A stretch of 64,000 nucleotides of DNA from sequence record OQ223305.1; one strand, written 5' to 3'. This document shows positions 3,094 through 46,236 of this stretch, piece after piece. Positions within the stretch are counted from its first letter, which is position 1, and every line of letters begins with the position of its first letter. The notes beneath the pieces were generated by a model. It worked only from the letters and a program-made list of their open reading frames with translations. It searched no databases and had not been told where the DNA came from. The position numbers and the translations under genes are program-made. Origin of the DNA: Escherichia phage EO1.

Positions 3094-4095
3094 ATGACTC
3101 GTAACGAATATATCAAATCATTCAATAGAGTTATTGATGATAAAGTTAAACCCATGTCTAGTCAGAACGCTGTTCTTTCTATTATCAATCAATGGCTCAG
3201 CAGTATTGATGCAAGTATTGTTTCTTCCAGTAAATTTATTCATGAAGTTCGTGAAATTTCTAGCCGTGTAGATAAAGATGATATTAAGATAATCTTTAAA
3301 GGGTCTCGTCTTCTTTCATATTTAGTTAATCGGGATATTCTTGGTAATTTTGGGAAAGAAATTAAACGAACCAAAGATGTAATAGGATACAATTGGTTCG
3401 GTGATGTTAATTCTTATCATCTTAATAATAAAGAAGACCCTGAGAATATTTTTACTCGTCGTTGGATTAGTAATTTCAGACTTTTTAAAGGACAAATTCT
3501 AAAATCAGCTTCTAAATTATGTTATGGCGATTATCGTCAAATTCATCCTTTGGCTTCTGATATGATTATCGTAAAAGAATATGAGCTTGATAAAAATAAA
3601 GTAGCTATTTTTGTGAATTACGAATTTTTTACACCAAACGCTAACCAAAAGAATATTAATAAATTTTTCTCAATTGCTAGCACTATAACTCATCAATTAG
3701 AGACGGCTTTGGATTGTATGGAAACTGTAAAAAGTATTCATACTTATCCTTTTAAGAATATGTGTGGTTGGGAAGGATACAAAATTGTAGTTAGTCTTCG
3801 TGAAGTGAAATGTGCTTATTCACCTACTGATAAAGAAATTTATCAACAAAAATGTGAGGAAATTGTGAATACTCCTAAAGAAGAAACTACCCTTGAGGAA
3901 CTAATGGAATGTCTTGATGATTCACCTGAACCGGTAGAAATTCGTCCAGAAGTTATTGCATTAGAAAAAGCTTATAAAGAAGTTCTAGAAATTTCTAATA
4001 AAGCGCAGAAAGAATACGAGCAGGCTAAAAAGATTTGGGAAGAATCTGTCAATCGCTTGGATCGTCTTGAACAAGCTTTACAGTTAATTAAGTAA
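3094..4095 (+). CDS. hypothetical protein, member 3 of coiled-coil-tailed ORF array (333 aa)
   Basis: ATG 3094 follows GAGGAG and its own promoter cassette (3036-3065); the six-frame start at 3043 is a TTG inside the promoter. C-terminal coiled coil (EKAYKEVLEISNKAQKEYEQAKKIWEESVNRLDRLEQALQLIK). Confidence 0.6.
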   Translation: MTRNEYIKSFNRVIDDKVKPMSSQNAVLSIINQWLSSIDASIVSSSKFIHEVREISSRVDKDDIKIIFKGSRLLSYLVNRDILGNFGKEIKRTKDVIGYNWFGDVNSYHLNNKEDPENIFTRRWISNFRLFKGQILKSASKLCYGDYRQIHPLASDMIIVKEYELDKNKVAIFVNYEFFTPNANQKNINKFFSIASTITHQLETALDCMETVKSIHTYPFKNMCGWEGYKIVVSLREVKCAYSPTDKEIYQQKCEEIVNTPKEETTLEELMECLDDSPEPVEIRPEVIALEKAYKEVLEISNKAQKEYEQAKKIWEESVNRLDRLEQALQLIK

Positions 4096-4147
4096 TTTAA
4101 AGCCAAGGATGGCTCGGAGCATAAATCATTAACCAAGTGAGAAGAAC

Positions 4148-5074
4148 ATGAAAACTCGTAAACATTATATTGATTATTTTGACAGTCTTATTACTAAACA
4201 TCGTAATTATCAGATAGGACACAGAGCAGTAATCAATAATATTCTTCGTGATTTTTTAGACTATATTGGATGGGAAAACCATATTTGTAAAGATACACAA
4301 AATGCGTATTCACATTCTCTTGGTTCTTTGCTCGAGTGGTTCAAACGTTCCCGATTACTATCTTCTGTGATAGCTGTTAATAATGTTAAAAAATTTATGT
4401 ATCCAAGCTACATTAAGACTAATGTATCAAATGCTAGTGTTGTTACATTTAATATTATTAACGACGTGAAAAGAACTTATTTAGAAGAATGGTTTTCTAA
4501 AGATAGTAAAGAAAAATTTGCCAGTGAATTTTCACACGAATTCAATAATAACGTGAATATGCTTTTTAAGCATTCTCGTAGACTGTTTTGTCATGGTGAT
4601 AATCGTACTATTAATGTGAATGTAAAAGACTGGGTTACGGCTAAATTCACTCCATCGTCCCAGAATGGACAATTTGATTTGTCAATTATCATTTGTGCTC
4701 CGCATGAGATATATAAAAATCTTCCGTATATGAAACCACGCGAAGCTAATAAACACAATGAAACTATTAGTTCTTTGTCTTATAATTTGCATGAGTTATT
4801 ATCTAATATGGATGTAGTTAAATCATTTGATGATAATACGAATTATGGTCTTTCACTGTTTGAAACTAAATTTGTTATTAAGTTAAAGGACCCTAGTGAA
4901 TTTAAATCTGCACCAAAACCTAATCATGGGAATGATACTATGAAAGAAGAACGTGAATATCTCAATGCCCGTTTGATTGAAGTTGAAAAACAAATTGAAG
5001 AGCATACTAAAGTTCTTAAGGCTTTAACCGCCAAAGCAAATGGTTTACGTAATGCTATTGAGGTATTGAAATGA
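4148..5074 (+). CDS. hypothetical protein, member 4 of coiled-coil-tailed ORF array (308 aa)
   Basis: ATG 4148; C-terminus [42 protein letters not shown]; stop overlaps next ATG (ATGA). Confidence 0.6.
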   Translation: MKTRKHYIDYFDSLITKHRNYQIGHRAVINNILRDFLDYIGWENHICKDTQNAYSHSLGSLLEWFKRSRLLSSVIAVNNVKKFMYPSYIKTNVSNASVVTFNIINDVKRTYLEEWFSKDSKEKFASEFSHEFNNNVNMLFKHSRRLFCHGDNRTINVNVKDWVTAKFTPSSQNGQFDLSIIICAPHEIYKNLPYMKPREANKHNETISSLSYNLHELLSNMDVVKSFDDNTNYGLSLFETKFVIKLKDPSEFKSAPKPNHGNDTMKEEREYLNARLIEVEKQIEEHTKVLKALTAKANGLRNAIEVLK

Positions 5075-39663: not shown

Positions 39664-39975
39664 ATGGTTTATGTATATGCGATAGTTTACCGAGACAAAG
39701 ACGGATTTACGGCGCCAGTTCCGCTTGATGAACATCGTCCTGCTGTGTTTTTTGAAAGAGAGATTGCTGATAGAGTTTTTACTACTCTCAAAGACCAATA
39801 TAAACTAGCTTTAGGTATGGGAATTCCAAGACTAGTTGAGACTCCACGCAAGTTTTGGTTTAATAAAATAGAAGTTAAACATGTTAAGCCTGATGTAGAT
39901 ACACAAAGATTATATCAACGAATTCTAGATACTGGGCGTATTGTTAGTATTCCAATTGCAGGGACTTTCCGATGA
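39664..39975 (+). CDS. hypothetical protein (103 aa)
   Basis: ORF immediately upstream of dda. Confidence 0.4.
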   Translation: MVYVYAIVYRDKDGFTAPVPLDEHRPAVFFEREIADRVFTTLKDQYKLALGMGIPRLVETPRKFWFNKIEVKHVKPDVDTQRLYQRILDTGRIVSIPIAGTFR

Positions 39976-41291
39976 CATTTGATGATTTGACAGAAGGCCA
40001 GAAAAATGCCTTTAACATCGTTATGAGGGCTATTAAAGAAAAGAAACATCATGTAACTATTAATGGACCTGCTGGTACTGGTAAGACTACTCTTACTAAG
40101 TTCATCATTGAAGCTTTAATATCTACGGGTGAAACTGGTATTATTTTAGCAGCTCCTACTCATGCAGCTAAAAAGATTCTTTCAAAACTGTCGGGGAAAG
40201 AAGCGAGTACTATTCACAGTATTCTTAAAATTAACCCAGTTACGTATGAAGAAAACGTTCTTTTTGAACAAAAAGAAGTACCAGATTTAGCTAAATGCAG
40301 GGTATTAATCTGCGACGAAGTGTCAATGTATGATAGAAAGCTCTTCAAAATTTTGCTTTCAACTATCCCACCGTGGTGTACTATAATTGGAATAGGCGAT
40401 AATAAGCAAATTAGACCTGTTGACCCAGGAGAAAATACTGCTTATATCAGTCCATTCTTTACACACAAAGATTTTTATCAGTGTGAACTTACTGAAGTTA
40501 AACGCAGTAATGCTCCTATTATTGATGTAGCTACTGATGTTCGCAACGGTAAGTGGATTTATGATAAAGTTGTTGACGGGCATGGAGTACGTGGATTTAC
40601 TGGTGATACCGCTTTACGTGATTTTATGGTAAATTATTTTTCAATCGTAAAATCATTAGATGATTTGTTTGAAAATCGCGTAATGGCATTTACGAATAAA
40701 TCTGTTGACAAGTTAAATAGCATTATTCGTAAAAAGATTTTTGAAACTGATAAAGATTTTATTGTTGGTGAAATTATTGTAATGCAGGAACCATTAATTA
40801 AAACATATAAAATTGATGGAAAGCCTGTATCAGAAATTATTTTTAATAATGGACAATTAGTTCGTATTATAGAAGCAGAGTATACATCAACATTTGTTAA
40901 AGCTCGTGGTGTTCCTGGAGAATATCTAATTCGTCATTGGGACTTAACAGTAGAAACTTACGGCGATGATGAATATTATCGTGAAAAGATTAAAATAATT
41001 TCATCTGATGAAGAGCTATATAAGTTTAACCTATTTTTAGGTAAAACGGCAGAAACTTATAAAAATTGGAACAAAGGCGGAAAAGCTCCATGGAGTGATT
41101 TTTGGGATGCTAAATCACAGTTCAGTAAAGTGAAAGCACTTCCTGCATCAACATTCCATAAAGCTCAGGGTATGTCTGTAGACCGTGCTTTCATTTATAC
41201 GCCTTGTATTCATTATGCAGATGCTGAATTAGCTCAACAACTTCTTTACGTTGGTGTAACACGTGGTCGTTATGATGTGTTTTATGTGTGA
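39972..41291 (+). CDS. dda: Dda DNA helicase (SF1), 439 aa
   Basis: 439 aa; Walker A GPAGTGKTT; MTFDDLTEGQKNAFNIVMRAI matches T4 Dda as recalled. Confidence 0.85.
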   Translation: MTFDDLTEGQKNAFNIVMRAIKEKKHHVTINGPAGTGKTTLTKFIIEALISTGETGIILAAPTHAAKKILSKLSGKEASTIHSILKINPVTYEENVLFEQKEVPDLAKCRVLICDEVSMYDRKLFKILLSTIPPWCTIIGIGDNKQIRPVDPGENTAYISPFFTHKDFYQCELTEVKRSNAPIIDVATDVRNGKWIYDKVVDGHGVRGFTGDTALRDFMVNYFSIVKSLDDLFENRVMAFTNKSVDKLNSIIRKKIFETDKDFIVGEIIVMQEPLIKTYKIDGKPVSEIIFNNGQLVRIIEAEYTSTFVKARGVPGEYLIRHWDLTVETYGDDEYYREKIKIISSDEELYKFNLFLGKTAETYKNWNKGGKAPWSDFWDAKSQFSKVKALPASTFHKAQGMSVDRAFIYTPCIHYADAELAQQLLYVGVTRGRYDVFYV

Positions 41292-41297
41292 GGCTAT

Positions 41298-41558
41298 ATG
41301 ATTAACATCAATTCAAAATATTTAAATCGTCTAATAGATGGTATAAGGAAGCATACTAATAAGCAAGATAATCTCGATGTTATGGTAACAGGAGCTGAGC
41401 TCCTTCATAAGCTTTATCTTATAAGTGATACTATATTAGCAATTAAACGAATTGAAAAACAATCATATCACAGTAATACAGATACGGTAATTACACTAGA
41501 TGAAAGTGTCTGTAAATTACTAATTAAATTTGAGGAAGCTATTCGTGGAAATAACTAA
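41298..41558 (+). CDS. hypothetical protein (86 aa), member of a local paralog trio
   Basis: ORF after dda; same size class as the two following ORFs. Confidence 0.4.
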   Translation: MININSKYLNRLIDGIRKHTNKQDNLDVMVTGAELLHKLYLISDTILAIKRIEKQSYHSNTDTVITLDESVCKLLIKFEEAIRGNN

Positions 41559-41790
41559 AGATCAGTTTTATCTGCTTCAAGATAAAGTGAGCGAAATTTA
41601 TGAAATAGCTTATAGTAAAAATCGTAGAAATGTAAAAATTGAATCTAGTAAGTTGAGGCTTCAATTAGAAGAAATTGAACGAGATTTAATTGCGTTAGAA
41701 TTCTTTTGTGGTGAAGTGAAAACTGTTACAATCAGTGATTATGTTTTAGGCGAAATTAGCCATCTTTATAAGGCGATTATTAATGATTGA
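41530..41790 (+). CDS. hypothetical protein (86 aa), paralog
   Basis: C-terminus TISDYVLGEISHLYKAI resembles the next ORF. Confidence 0.4.
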   Translation: MRKLFVEITKDQFYLLQDKVSEIYEIAYSKNRRNVKIESSKLRLQLEEIERDLIALEFFCGEVKTVTISDYVLGEISHLYKAIIND

Positions 41791-42025
41791 ATTAAGTTGG
41801 TATCAGTTTAAATCTCTTATGGCAAATGTTAAAGCTGTCATTGAAGAAAATCCGGGTCCTGAAAATATTACTATTCGCGAAAAAGCTTCAAAGATAGTAT
41901 ACAGTCTTGAAGAGATACAAAAAGACATTGAATCTATGGCAAAATTTATTGATGAGCCTATTAATAAAGTTTATATTCAAGACTATACTGTAGGTCAAAT
42001 TCGCGATTTAGCAAGGAAAATTTAA
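41783..42025 (+). CDS. hypothetical protein (80 aa), paralog
   Basis: C-terminus YIQDYTVGQIRDLARKI resembles the previous ORF. Confidence 0.4.
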   Translation: MIELSWYQFKSLMANVKAVIEENPGPENITIREKASKIVYSLEEIQKDIESMAKFIDEPINKVYIQDYTVGQIRDLARKI

Positions 42026-42709
42026 TGTTTGATTTTATTATAGATTTTGAAACAATGGGAAGCGGCGAAAAGGCAGCTGTTATTGATTTAGCTGTAATTG
42101 CTTTTGACCCTAATCCAGAAGTCGTTGAAACATTCGATGAATTAGTTTCACGTGGCATTAAAATCAAATTTGATTTAAAAAGCCAAAAAGGACATCGTCT
42201 TTTTACTAAAAGCACTATCGAATGGTGGAAGAATCAATCCCCTGAAGCTCGAAAAAAATATTGCACCGTCAGATGAAGATGTAAGCACTATTGATGGTAT
42301 TGCAAAATTCAATGATTACATCAATGCGCATAATATAGATCCTTGGAAATCTCAGGGTTGGTGCCGTGGAATGTCGTTTGATTTTCCAATTTTAGTCGAT
42401 CTCATTCGTGATATTCAACGTTTTAATGGCGTTTCTGAGAATGAACTTGACACATTTAAGTTAGAACCATGTAAATTCTGGAATCAGCGTGATATTCGTA
42501 CCAGAATTGAAGCACTTCTGCTCGTTCGTGATATGACCACATGTCCTCTTCCAAAGGGAACTTTAGATGGATTTGTTGCACATGATTCTATTCATGACTG
42601 TGCGAAAGATATTCTGATGATGAAGTATGCTTTGCGATATGCTATGGGTCTTGAAGATCCTCCGTCAGAGGAAGAGTGCGATCCTCTATCTCTTCCAACA
42701 AAACGATAA
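42025..42709 (+). pseudogene. dexA: dexA (exonuclease A) interrupted by a +1 frameshift in an A7 run
   Basis: N-terminal 83-aa ORF (MFDFIIDFETMGSGEKAAVIDLAVIAF) stops at 42276; continuation is in another frame to 42709. Removing one A from the run at 42252-42258 gives one ~227-aa reading frame. Confidence 0.6.
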
Positions 42710-42715
42710 AAAGTT

Positions 42716-42745
42716 GTTTACTTCCTCGGTTAGTTGTGGTATTAT
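42716..42745 (+). promoter_or_regulatory. early promoter (GTTTAC ... GTGGTATTAT)
   Basis: GTTTAC 42716-42721, TATTAT 42740-42745. Confidence 0.6.
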
Positions 42746-42772
42746 AACACCATAGCTACTGAGGATAATAAA

Positions 42773-43273
42773 ATGAAAATTTATCGTGTTGAATCATCGT
42801 TTAGTATTCTTGATTATGAAGATGCTATAACAATACGTCGAAATCTTTGTGTTCAAATAACGCCGTACAGGAGTATAATAGATTCATGGAGCGAAGAGTG
42901 GCTATTACACGTAGGTTATGACAGACCTAATTTTATGCATCATAGCGATAATAATAAAAGAATTCCTTTACCACACGAAGATAAACTATTAGTTAAAAAC
43001 GCTAATATAGTAATTAATACTAAGTTCAAGAAAGATTATGTTGGAGTAGAATATCATATTCCAGGATGGTTTATAGCTCTTTATCATTTTGCTTTCGCTA
43101 GTGAGTATGATATGATGAGATGGTTCACACGAGAAGAGCGGGAAGAATTATCTTCTAAAGGATTTTATCTCGCTGTATACGAAGTTCCTGAAGATGAAGT
43201 TATCATTGGTGGGCACCAAGTAATGTTCCGCAAATCGCATGCTGAACTCGTAGATTTTATTGAAATGAGATAA
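42773..43273 (+). CDS. hypothetical early protein (166 aa), motB-region
   Basis: ATG 42773 behind an early promoter (42716-42745); the six-frame start at 42734 lies in the promoter. Confidence 0.45.
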   Translation: MKIYRVESSFSILDYEDAITIRRNLCVQITPYRSIIDSWSEEWLLHVGYDRPNFMHHSDNNKRIPLPHEDKLLVKNANIVINTKFKKDYVGVEYHIPGWFIALYHFAFASEYDMMRWFTREEREELSSKGFYLAVYEVPEDEVIIGGHQVMFRKSHAELVDFIEMR

Positions 43274-43393
43274 TTATGAAATTTAATTATAATCCTGAAT
43301 ACACACCAAATCCGGTAGCTAAACTGATTGATTTTGATGTTGTAAAGCACTTATGTATGCCCTGTTAAACCACTGGAAATTAAGGAACCTACT

Positions 43394-43816
43394 ATGACTA
43401 CCGCCATTGAAATCGGCAAAACCTACAAACTGGTTGAAACTGAAATTAAAACTACTGAACTAAATTTGGGTTATAAAGCATTGACTAATGCTTTTGGTGA
43501 AGGCGAGTTTGTGGTTAAAAGCTTTTCAAAAAGTAACTGGTATGATAAGAATAAAGCTTACGTGATTCGAGTACGCCGTTTAGATAATGATGAAGTAATT
43601 AAAACTATAGTTTTTGAAGCAGAGTTCATCCTCTTTCAAGAATGCGATCCTACTGACCTTCTAACTCATGCGGTAGCTATCAAGACCCCATTTATTTCGG
43701 TTTGTGGTTGGGTAACAGACCAATGGATTGAAGATGGTGTTGAACTTCTGAACGTTGTTCATGCAGGTGATTTTAGCGTAGTACCTCGTAGTGCAGTGGT
43801 AGCTATTTTGAATTAA
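43394..43816 (+). CDS. hypothetical protein (140 aa), paralog A
   Basis: C-terminal region VCGWVTDQWIEDGVELLNVVHAGDFSVVP resembles the next ORF. Confidence 0.45.
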   Translation: MTTAIEIGKTYKLVETEIKTTELNLGYKALTNAFGEGEFVVKSFSKSNWYDKNKAYVIRVRRLDNDEVIKTIVFEAEFILFQECDPTDLLTHAVAIKTPFISVCGWVTDQWIEDGVELLNVVHAGDFSVVPRSAVVAILN

Positions 43817-43818
43817 TA

Positions 43819-43853
43819 GTTTACAAACTCTTGGGACCAGAGTATAATGGTCC
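43819..43853 (+). promoter_or_regulatory. early promoter with TATAAT in a stem-loop
   Basis: GTTTAC 43819-43824; TATAAT 43843-43848 bracketed by inverted repeat GGACCA (43834-43839) / TGGTCC (43848-43853). Confidence 0.65.
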
Positions 43854-43892
43854 TGTGGAGTATAAAATCTTTTTAACAAGTGAGAGATAACT

Positions 43893-44390
43893 ATGATTAT
43901 TAATATTGGTGAAATTGCTCGTGTATCTGATAAATCCCGTTCTAAAGCAGCAGGAAAATTGGTCGAAATTGTAAGCATTCAGCTTAAACACGGCGTTAAA
44001 GATGAAGATTCTGAAGTAAAAGTGCGTATCATTCCTAAAGATGGAAAGTCTAAACCTCAGTTTGGTTATGTTCGATGGAAATTTCTTGAGCCTGCGTTTT
44101 TGAAAGCTGTTCCCGCTAAAGGAATTGAAACGATTGATACTTCGCATGTAGGTGTAGACTTTAAGTGGAAACTCGGTCAGGCTATTAAGTTCGTTGCTCC
44201 TTATGAATTCGAATTTACTGAAGATGAGGAAGGGGTTGTTCAAAAACACCGTACTCGCGCTATGTGTGCATACATTACTGATCAATGGGTAGAAGACGGT
44301 GTTAAGCTGTACAACGCGGTATTTTTAGGAACATACAAAGTCATTCCTGAAAGTTGGATTAAACACTACAGCAAAGCTCGCTGTGCATAA
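43893..44390 (+). CDS. hypothetical protein (165 aa), paralog B
   Basis: C-terminal region MCAYITDQWVEDGVKLYNAVFLGTYKVIP resembles the previous ORF; own promoter at 43819-43848. Confidence 0.45.
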   Translation: MIINIGEIARVSDKSRSKAAGKLVEIVSIQLKHGVKDEDSEVKVRIIPKDGKSKPQFGYVRWKFLEPAFLKAVPAKGIETIDTSHVGVDFKWKLGQAIKFVAPYEFEFTEDEEGVVQKHRTRAMCAYITDQWVEDGVKLYNAVFLGTYKVIPESWIKHYSKARCA

Positions 44391-44424
44391 AGTTTAAATT
44401 TTTTTTTTTCATAAAACTATATAC

Positions 44425-44467
44425 ATCAGTAGTTGATTATGGTACTATATCAATATCAACTACTGAT
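44425..44467 (+). promoter_or_regulatory. promoter-like stem-loop element: 13-bp perfect inverted repeat bracketing a -10 region
   Basis: ATCAGTAGTTGAT (44425-44437) and ATCAACTACTGAT (44455-44467) flank TATGGTACTATAT; variant of the 32-bp core; no GTTTAC -35. Confidence 0.5.
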
Positions 44468-44491
44468 ACAGAAAATAACTTGGAGAATAAA

Positions 44492-44761
44492 ATGGAAAAT
44501 TTAATTATCATCGAGCAATCTTTCAATGATTATGGTATGGCTTACGGTTATCGTGCGATAATGGAAGATTCTCGTGGATGTGTTATCGATATTGCTGAAT
44601 GTAAAGATTTACTGCAGCTTTTGAAGATTGTTCGCAAAAATTGGGATTGTGAAAACATTAAAGCTCGTGTTGTAACGGAAGAAGAAACTGTTTTTCATGA
44701 TGTAAAATTCGCCAAAGGTGCTGCTACTCTTCTGAAACGCATTGCTCCACTGTTCAATTAA
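44492..44761 (+). CDS. hypothetical protein (89 aa)
   Basis: ATG 44492 after TTGGAGAATAAA downstream of a promoter stem-loop. Confidence 0.4.
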   Translation: MENLIIIEQSFNDYGMAYGYRAIMEDSRGCVIDIAECKDLLQLLKIVRKNWDCENIKARVVTEEETVFHDVKFAKGAATLLKRIAPLFN

Positions 44762-44774
44762 TGAGGAAATTGTA

Positions 44775-44990
44775 ATGAAACGTAAAATTGTTCAGAATTG
44801 CACTAATGACGAATTTGAAGATGTATTATTCGATCCAGATTTGGTAGTAGTTCAAAAGGAACACACCATCAAGTTTACTCACTTGACTTCGGTTTATGTG
44901 TATGAAAAGGTTGGTGATAAACAACCAATTTACGGTGTATTTCGTGAAATTACTGAAGATGGCACAACTTACTGGAAGGAAATTTATTAA
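44775..44990 (+). CDS. hypothetical protein (71 aa)
   Basis: ATG 44775 after GAGGAAATTGTA. Confidence 0.4.
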
Positions 44991-45415
44991 TGGCTATTAA
45001 ATTTGAAGTTAATAAATGGTATCAATTTAAAAATAAACAAGCTCAAGAAAATTTTATTAAAGACCATACTGATAACGGAATCTATGCACGCCGTTTAGGT
45101 ATGCATCCTTTTAAAATTTTAGATGTTGACCATCTTGGTCGTCCTACTAAAATTGTGACATCTACTGGCACAGTTGGATATGCAACACATGGTGATATCC
45201 TTGACGAAAACTTTATCTGGCTTTCTACTACCGAAGCTGGGTTCTTTGATGAAGTGGAAAATCCATACCAGGCAGCTGAAGAGCAAGAGCAGGAAGAGAA
45301 AGAGCAAGAACAAATAGAAGATTTCACAGAATTCCCGGTCATGAAAGTTACTATTGAAAATAATGAACAGGCATGGTCTTTGTATCAGATGTTGAAAGCA
45401 CACTTTAAGGAATAA
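44990..45415 (+). CDS. hypothetical protein with acidic low-complexity segment (141 aa)
   Basis: ORF with [12 protein letters not shown] tract. Confidence 0.4.
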
Positions 45416-45417
45416 TT

Positions 45418-45594
45418 ATGCCAATGTATGATTATAAATGCCAATCCGAAGATTGCGGGCATGAATATGAAAAAATTAAAAAGATTTCTGAACGAGAAAA
45501 TGATGTTTGCCCTAAATGTCATCGTTTGTCTACTCGTCGGCCTTCTGCTCCTAAGCATGTGAATGGCGGTTTTTACGATTTACTTAAAGGGTGA
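45418..45594 (+). CDS. small zinc-ribbon protein (58 aa)
   Basis: CxxC...CPxC arrangement (YKCQSEDCGHEY...DVCPKCH). Confidence 0.4.
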   Translation: MPMYDYKCQSEDCGHEYEKIKKISERENDVCPKCHRLSTRRPSAPKHVNGGFYDLLKG

Positions 45595-45596
45595 TT

Positions 45597-45971
45597 ATGT
45601 TTAAAATCGGTAAGAAATATCGTGTTCGCGAAGGTGAAGAAAAGAAATATCTACTTTCTGCTAGTAATAGGAATGGTTCTATTAATGCCGTAATATCTAC
45701 AAGCGAATTTATCGTTGAAGATATGAAAGGTCATAATGTTACAATGATTAGTACAGCAACTAGCAGAAATGCTGGAAAAATTCTTCACAGTCTGCGGAGT
45801 GAAGTTCTAATTTATGATGAAGAATTTGACTTCTTCGAAGAAGTCACTGAAGATTTTGATTTTGAATGCACTATCACTATGAAATCTGGCGACCCTCTTT
45901 CTTTTACAGTTAAAGATGAAAGAAGTCGCTTGAGAATTATTAGTCTTCTTCAAGCCATTAAATTTGAGTGA
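45597..45971 (+). CDS. hypothetical protein (124 aa)
   Basis: ATG 45597; no recognisable motif. Confidence 0.4.
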   Translation: MFKIGKKYRVREGEEKKYLLSASNRNGSINAVISTSEFIVEDMKGHNVTMISTATSRNAGKILHSLRSEVLIYDEEFDFFEEVTEDFDFECTITMKSGDPLSFTVKDERSRLRIISLLQAIKFE

Positions 45972-45975
45972 AATT

Positions 45976-46236
45976 ATGAAATATATTAATCGTTCTATCG
46001 CAGCATTAGTATTAGCAGTGTCTTTAGCAGGATGTACTGATGCTGATAATGCAACCAAAATTTTGTCATCAAGCGGTTTTACTAATATTGAAATCACTGG
46101 ATACAATTGGTTCGGTTGCTCTGAAAATGATTTCCAACATACTGGATTTCGTGCTATTGGACCTACTGGGCAGAAAGTAGAAGGAACAGTATGTTCTGGG
46201 TTGTTCTTTAAGGATTCAACTATTCGTTTTAAATAA
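45976..46236 (+). CDS. hypothetical lipoprotein (86 aa)
   Basis: Signal peptide with lipobox LAGC (MKYINRSIAALVLAVSLAGCTD); followed by a terminator. Confidence 0.45.
   Translation: MKYINRSIAALVLAVSLAGCTDADNATKILSSSGFTNIEITGYNWFGCSENDFQHTGFRAIGPTGQKVEGTVCSGLFFKDSTIRFK

Follow-up and report, generated by a model that had tools for sequence, protein, structure and literature searches.

Old paralogs of the DexA.1/DexA.2 family, with a putative third member, between dda and dexA of a T4-like phage

The stretch of DNA analysed here (the window: 64,000 nucleotides of Escherichia phage EO1, sequence record OQ223305.1) belongs to a Tequatrovirus, that is, a T4-like genome, and its + strand is the reverse of the T4 map direction. 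Over the 3.3 kb from 41200 to 44500 it is 95-97.5% identical to many Tequatrovirus genomes, with ECML-363 as the best match. The order of genes, assigned from annotated relatives and from T4, is as follows:

39972-41291, + strand: dda helicase, a 439-aa ORF with 100% identity to Dda of several Tequatrovirus records and T4 synteny; upstream anchor of the array
41298-41558, + strand: ORF A, 86 aa; putative cryptic third paralog of the DexA.1/DexA.2 family
41545-41790, + strand: ORF B, 81 aa, ortholog of T4 dexA.2 (Y00H); start GTG at 41545
41783-42025, + strand: ORF C, 80 aa, ortholog of T4 dexA.1 (Y00G)
42025-42709, + strand: dexA (exonuclease A), downstream anchor of the array; two ORFs, 42025-42276 and 42371-42709, in different frames
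42773-43273: motB.2
43394-43816, + strand: motB.1-type gene, 140 aa
43893-44390, + strand: motB, 165 aa
44480-44761: 93-aa ORF (phrog_3720) between motB and cef
about 44775-44990: cef
44990-45415: goF
45418-45594: 39.2
45591-45971: 126-aa ORF between 39.2 and 39.1
45964-46236: 39.1

Between dda and dexA, ORFs A, B and C are three translationally coupled genes: the GAGG Shine-Dalgarno of ORF A overlaps the dda stop, B and C overlap by 8 nt (ATGATTGA), and the stop of C overlaps the start of dexA (TAATG). The mechanically called ORF B begins at TTG 41530, and the GTG start used here, together with the GAGGA at 41532-41536, is the same in T4. Promoter-like sites inside the A-B-C array are none stronger than 9/12; upstream of motB, at 43820-43848, lies a promoter-like TTTACA-17-TATAAT. 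The split of dexA comes from an extra A in the run at 42252-42258 (A7 here versus A6 in Sa45lw). Exact matches in IMG/VR number three for the A6 allele and zero for A7, which is either an error of homopolymer sequencing or a frameshift private to this genome. Two other homopolymer runs also differ from Sa45lw. At 43344-43346 there is AAA here versus AA, which parts a 30-codon ORF (43276-43368) from the 140-aa motB.1 ORF; relatives annotate a single 179-aa protein there, spanning the whole phrog_2333 profile, and T4 MotB.1 starts near the ATG at 43394 of the window. The T-run at 44399-44403, just 3' of motB, is five bases longer (T11 here versus T6). At the position of the 93-aa ORF (44480-44761) T4 has only a gap of ~170 nt.

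An earlier note on this DNA, made from its letters, had reported a C-terminal motif common to the ORFs at 41530-41790 and 41783-42025. The ORFs and peptides are present where it placed them, and the similarity extends beyond the motif to essentially the full length of the proteins: BLASTP aligns B and C at 29% identity over 80 aa (E = 1e-8), and their Smith-Waterman score of 84 compares with 27 +/- 5 in 2000 shuffles (z = 11.2), none of which reaches 84. Formal pairwise alignment is significant both for this pair (E 1e-8) and for the second pair of the note, MotB.1 and MotB (E 3e-11), and each is a pair of adjacent true paralogs within the dda-39 interval of a T4-like genome; neither contains a nucleotide-level repeat.

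B (93% identical to T4 DexA.2) and C (100% identical to an ECML-363 protein) are direct orthologs of T4 DexA.2 and DexA.1, with ~93% identity, the same position and the same overlapping junctions. The Pfam family PF26837 (Phage_T4_Y00H_G) is precomputed on proteins 86-100% identical to B and C, as well as on every B-type and C-type protein found in a large protein collection, and it already covers, besides both T4 paralogs, the genes present as single copies in Dhakavirus, Gelderlandvirus, Karamvirus and the Klebsiella T4-like phage K65. As UniProt calls DexA.2 Y00H and DexA.1 Y00G, the paralogy of B and C is already curated in Pfam. With our own family HMM, C reaches 145 bits and B 123 bits; a Pfam scan of A, B and C with a model set that lacks PF26837 gave no match, and an NCBIfam scan of the three gave chance-level matches only, far below the curated cut-offs. 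A lead to phrog_11451 ('CI-like repressor'; Dhakavirus copy E 2.6e-4) was rejected as chance, since it matches only 2 of 40 family members. The family consists of a single small domain of 76-86 aa, for which the models of A and B predict a beta-alpha-alpha-beta-alpha fold, that is, three helices and a short two-strand element; the AF2 model of B (pLDDT 95.4, pTM 0.84) places these elements at E5-9, H10-29, H33-60, E65-69 and H70-84.

Two points concern the records of these genes. DexA.2 is labelled 'dextranase' (T4, NC_000866, 5644-5889), and DexA.1 and DexA.2 are labelled 'exonuclease', in RefSeq and many GenBank records; both names appear to have been propagated from the gene name dexA and are unsupported by sequence, profile and fold searches. 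In phage ime09 (JN202312, 1461-1940), a 159-aa 'DexA.1' is an in-frame DexA.2::DexA.1 fusion that arose through loss of 1 nt close to the end of dexA.2, and such a fusion of B and C explains the length of phrog_1700 (160 positions). The fusion was considered as a sign that B and C cooperate and rejected, as it is a single record with a 1-nt deletion that may be a sequencing error.

Members of the family lie between dda and dexA in the window, T4, Dhakavirus, Gelderlandvirus, Karamvirus, K65, Tegunavirus and two metagenomic contigs, and 496 phage records carry B (at least 80% identity) and 479 carry C. Counted in one genome per genus (two for Mosigvirus), copy number among T4-like genera ranges from 0 to 3 between dda and dexA:

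Mosigvirus, Bragavirus: 0 copies, dda and dexA directly adjacent
Dhakavirus: 1 clear family copy (about 50 records)
Gelderlandvirus, Karamvirus, Klebsiella phage K65: 1 clear family copy each
Marfavirus, Kanagawavirus: 1 copy of a different type, of doubtful family membership
Tegunavirus fHe-Yen9-01: 2 copies, one of each type
T4: 2 copies and the scar of A
this window: 3 copies

The two copies of Yersinia phage fHe-Yen9-01 (KY593455, 3001-3455) are a PF26837 member followed by an ORF of Kanagawavirus type. The ORFs of Marfavirus/Kanagawavirus type were rejected as firm members (hhalign E 4e-4, probability 35%; Foldseek probability 0.5) and are counted as possible members only. Acinetobacter phage 133 has three small ORFs at 3887-4714, the dexA-adjoining one of which matches C at 2.7e-4; the two others, two ORFs of RB43 and an Aeromonas phage ORF downstream of dda have no detectable sequence relation to the family. 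When 1.84 billion representative proteins were searched exhaustively with a profile, only 20 matched at E <= 1e-3: 19 are proteins of 39-112 aa (76-82 aa for full-length members), and the remaining one, a 653-aa repeat protein, is a spurious match. No relative outside small phage proteins was thus found among the 1.84 billion representatives, and the family is found almost only in T4-like phages.

Between genera, identity within the family is 18-42%, as against 59-75% for Dda and 58-84% for DexA, and pN/pS among Tequatrovirus sequences lies at 0.1-0.5 in A, B and C (~0.25 for ORF A) as against 0-0.04 for dda. On these comparisons A, B and C evolve about ten times faster than Dda, and they are real genes under purifying selection that is much weaker than that on dda.

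As to what the proteins do, Foldseek found no fold match for the B model in the PDB (best E 1.6), only hydrophobic positions are invariant in the family, and conserved catalytic-type residues are absent. Most members are mildly acidic (pI 4.2-5.4), with ORF A (pI 7.9) and the Dhakavirus copy (6.6) near neutral. In T4, dda.1-dda-dexA.2-dexA.1 are transcribed as one unit, mainly in the middle phase (bioRxiv 10.1101/2024.04.04.588121), which disagrees with the description of these genes as 'early' in the earlier note. Cells infected with T4 have yielded a DexA.2 peptide (PMC10097602). Both recombinant proteins, Y00H and Y00G, are soluble, and an unnamed E. coli protein of ~9 kDa co-elutes with His-Y00G (PMC8076793), although heterologous co-elution of this kind can be unspecific.

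Being soluble, mostly acidic, fast-evolving and devoid of catalytic-type residues, A, B and C are most likely protein binders that would act stoichiometrically on other proteins, probably those of the host. A host target is preferred to DexA or Dda because two genera keep dda and dexA without such genes and because the family evolves much faster than either enzyme; this weakly suggests that A, B and C bind host proteins. Each paralog may have diverged toward a different target or target variant, and the fixed place before dexA would probably reflect inherited gene order and shared transcription, not an obligatory partnership with DexA. We tentatively propose, as one possibility, that the array is a set of diversifying host-directed binders serving takeover or anti-defence, with A, B and C each neutralising a separate host protein or a separate allelic variant of one. 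If so, the presence or absence of A within Tequatrovirus and the copy number of 0-3 would track host range, and the first target would be the E. coli protein of ~9 kDa seen to co-elute with T4 DexA.1 (PMC8076793). The pattern of duplication, divergence and loss makes these genes reasonable choices for screens of host interaction.

It is also conceivable, though we consider it unlikely, that A, B and C are accessory subunits or regulators of DexA or Dda, made in proportion to DexA by translational coupling: a family member lies directly 5' of dexA in every genus that has one, Acinetobacter phage 133 with its C-matching, dexA-proximal ORF included, stop and start codons overlap at B/C (ATGATTGA) and at C/dexA (TAATG), and T4 cotranscribes dda.1-dda-dexA.2-dexA.1. 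In Mosigvirus and Bragavirus, however, dda and dexA are adjacent without any such gene, and the family diverges at a rate far above that of either enzyme, as would be unusual in an obligate partner. Moreover, gene order and overlapping codons are conserved in T4-like genomes even among functionally unrelated genes. Recombinant DexA, finally, is soluble and multimeric on its own, without proteins of the A/B/C type (PMC8076793).

The earlier note had taken its pairs as products of recent duplication, and here the evidence points the other way. B and C are only 28-30% identical, with no DNA similarity left between them, and the conservation of each among some 480-500 Tequatrovirus records is 85-96%. 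In a neighbour-joining tree (~80 columns, capped Poisson distances, 500 bootstraps), C groups with the single copy of Dhakavirus in 87% of bootstraps and never with B (0%), although an acceleration of B following a duplication specific to Tequatrovirus could pass for an older split in such a tree. Such a young tandem duplication, in which a very fast B only looks old, would fit the single copy of Dhakavirus, the nearest genus with the gene, and the way in which B keeps the N-terminal 'TKDQFY' of Dhakavirus and C its C-terminal 'DYTVGQIRDL', a pattern of subfunctionalising duplicates. We nevertheless regard it as improbable, as B and C are sisters in 0 of 500 bootstraps, no nucleotide similarity remains, and B is conserved like C within Tequatrovirus (86-96%), so that any acceleration must have ended before the genus radiated. 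Even under a Tequatrovirus-specific origin, the event predates roughly 500 sequenced Tequatroviruses and is thus not recent. The copies between dda and dexA are best explained by an old duplication that was followed by divergence and accompanied by differential loss between lineages.

The interval singled out by the earlier note (41298-42025) includes ORF A, which the note left undiscussed. Pairwise comparison of ORF A with B and with C gives nothing significant, its score against an HMM of the B/C/Dhakavirus clade is only 2.8 bits, and A-type proteins have no precomputed Pfam match. It matches phrog_4967 and, at E 1.8e-5, phrog_5263, the PHROG of the single-copy genes of Gelderlandvirus and K65 (B matches the latter at 1e-7 and C at 1.4e-3). 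A profile of 24 single-copy orthologs from other genera, of Gelderlandvirus, Karamvirus and K65 type, from which A, B and C were excluded, was searched against 365 stop-to-stop ORFs of the window (at least 50 aa, six frames). Just three of these match, B at 3e-11, C at 2e-9 and A at 2e-5, and the best of the others is at 0.16; hhalign joins the A family to the ortholog set over 74 columns (probability 91%, E 9e-7). Only four near-identical sequences went into the AF2 model of A (pLDDT 85.6; E2-5, H6-22, H26-52, E64-67, H69-84), which has the same beta-alpha-alpha-beta-alpha order of elements as that of B, the two short strands included. Its best Foldseek matches in BFVD after itself are small T4-like phage proteins, including DexA.2 of BECP11 (TM 0.69/0.73) and the Karamvirus CC31 protein that is the dda-dexA ortholog (TM about 0.7), the top matches having a probability of 1.00. 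The B model retrieves the same set of T4-like phage proteins from BFVD, and in this reverse search an A-type entry is absent from the top 50. By profile-profile comparison and fold, and not by Pfam's own threshold, ORF A is thus a putative remote member of the family, a membership that rests on intermediate profiles and predicted folds. Compared with T4, the phage of the window, like the 308 phage records in which ORF A is present, would therefore have a third and much more diverged member, and an ORF recorded as 'hypothetical protein' in ~300 phage genomes can be assigned, on this predicted relationship, to the DexA.1/DexA.2 family.

T4 itself retains a trace of ORF A. Directly after dda it has ATGATTAAATTTGAGGAAGCTATTCGTGGAAATAACTAA, which is the first two and the last ten codons of A, in frame, forming a scar of 12 codons (MI joined to KFEEAIRGNN). 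ATTAA stands at both ends of the segment missing from T4, and two other A-less contigs have the identical junction. From the in-frame scar, the ATTAA at the ends and the shared junction we infer that A is ancestral in this lineage and that the T4 type lost it by one deletion, which would have occurred across the ATTAA microhomology. That A is instead a small helical ORF of unrelated origin, brought in between dda and dexA.2 by insertion, its resemblance convergent or a small-bundle artefact, would suit its missing pairwise similarity to B and C, the lack of a Pfam match on record and the frequency with which small helical models reach TM 0.5-0.7 by chance, but is very improbable in view of a full-length profile match (E 2e-5) that is the sole one in the window besides B and C, the hhalign and independent phrog_5263 matches, top Foldseek matches that are specifically small T4-like phage proteins (DexA.2 and the Karamvirus ortholog among them), an identical order of beta and alpha elements, and a T4 scar that keeps the start codon and last 10 codons of A in frame, as a deletion should and an insertion hardly would.

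The second pair, for which the earlier note had described a longer common C-terminal motif (43394-43816 and 43893-44390), proves to share a 32-residue block, with 50% identity over 32 aa in BLASTP (E = 3e-11; z = 15.7, 0 of 2000 shuffles):

43697-43792, + strand: shared block in MotB.1, residues 102-133 (SVCGWVTDQWIEDGVELLNVVHAGDFSVVPRS), from BLASTP
44259-44354, + strand: shared block in MotB, residues 123-154, from BLASTP

Outside this C-terminal block MotB.1 and MotB give no alignment, and a sequence search of the PDB found no relative of either. The Pfam family motB (PF17613) matches MotB.1 at residues 102-135, corresponding to profile positions 120-153 (34.8 bits versus a gathering score of 25), and MotB (43893-44390) over its full length (E 4e-97, profile positions 1-160 of 162). 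The protein of 43394-43816 does not have the full MotB architecture (a KOW-like N-terminal and a C-terminal domain); it shares a domain with MotB and is not its ortholog. Its N-terminal part belongs to phrog_2333, which the protein matches at E 8e-59. With T4 MotB.1 it aligns only at residues 72-112, having a different N-terminal domain and extending past the end of T4 MotB.1 through the part of the block that T4 lacks. In the neighbouring motB.2 (42773-43273), a match to the SRA (SET and RING associated) domain (E 0.09, 13 bits versus a cut-off of 30) was set aside as too weak. SRA domains flip modified cytosines out of DNA, and one in motB.2 would be of interest in a phage whose DNA carries hydroxymethylcytosine.

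A conserved C-terminal core in MotB and the upstream MotB.1, with duplication as the proposed origin, was described by Patterson-West et al. (2021, Viruses 13:84; PMC7827196), and the window resembles T4 in that MotB and an upstream MotB.1-type gene have this core in common; the MotB.1-type protein of the window probably falls in one of the non-T4 categories of that paper, which have another N-terminal domain. T4 MotB is a non-specific DNA-binding protein that alters the binding of H-NS to DNA (PMC6070864, PMC7827196), so that the 'unknown function' which the earlier note ascribed to its small genes is not quite right for MotB. A recent origin does not fit this pair either, given that Dhakavirus and Kanagawavirus each have annotations of both MotB and MotB.1 (in Mosigvirus there are two motB-like genes) and that only the C-terminal domain is common to them, which indicates mosaicism at the level of domains and not a young duplicate of a whole gene. 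The relation of MotB.1 to MotB is an old, domain-level paralogy separate from that of A, B and C.

Both reported paralogies are thus real and significant, but ancient and mostly already recorded (Pfam PF26837; the 2021 paper). Taken as a whole, the combination of old A/B/C paralogs with differential loss, a separate domain-level paralogy of MotB.1 and MotB, and a likely binder role is in our view the best explanation, and we hold it with fair assurance. What is added here is the putative third family member A, the T4 deletion scar, and the pattern of old duplication, fast divergence and repeated loss; the importance beyond annotation is small.

The same interval holds a third local paralog set. 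GoF (44990-45415) and the 126-aa ORF at 45591-45971 both match phrog_622 (3e-41 and 7e-30, respectively), and the 126-aa ORF, which is absent from T4, is a GoF paralog. The N-terminal domain of MotB.1, GoF and Frd.2 have been assigned to a family with an LSm-like fold (Kim et al. 2025, PMC12152347), a paper in which the 126-aa paralog is without mention. Like A, B and C, this family has local paralogs within the dda-39 interval, although fold and family differ. The 126-aa ORF also matches the MotB.1 PHROG at 1.7e-4, and its N-terminal part gives weak BLASTP alignments to GoF and MotB.1.
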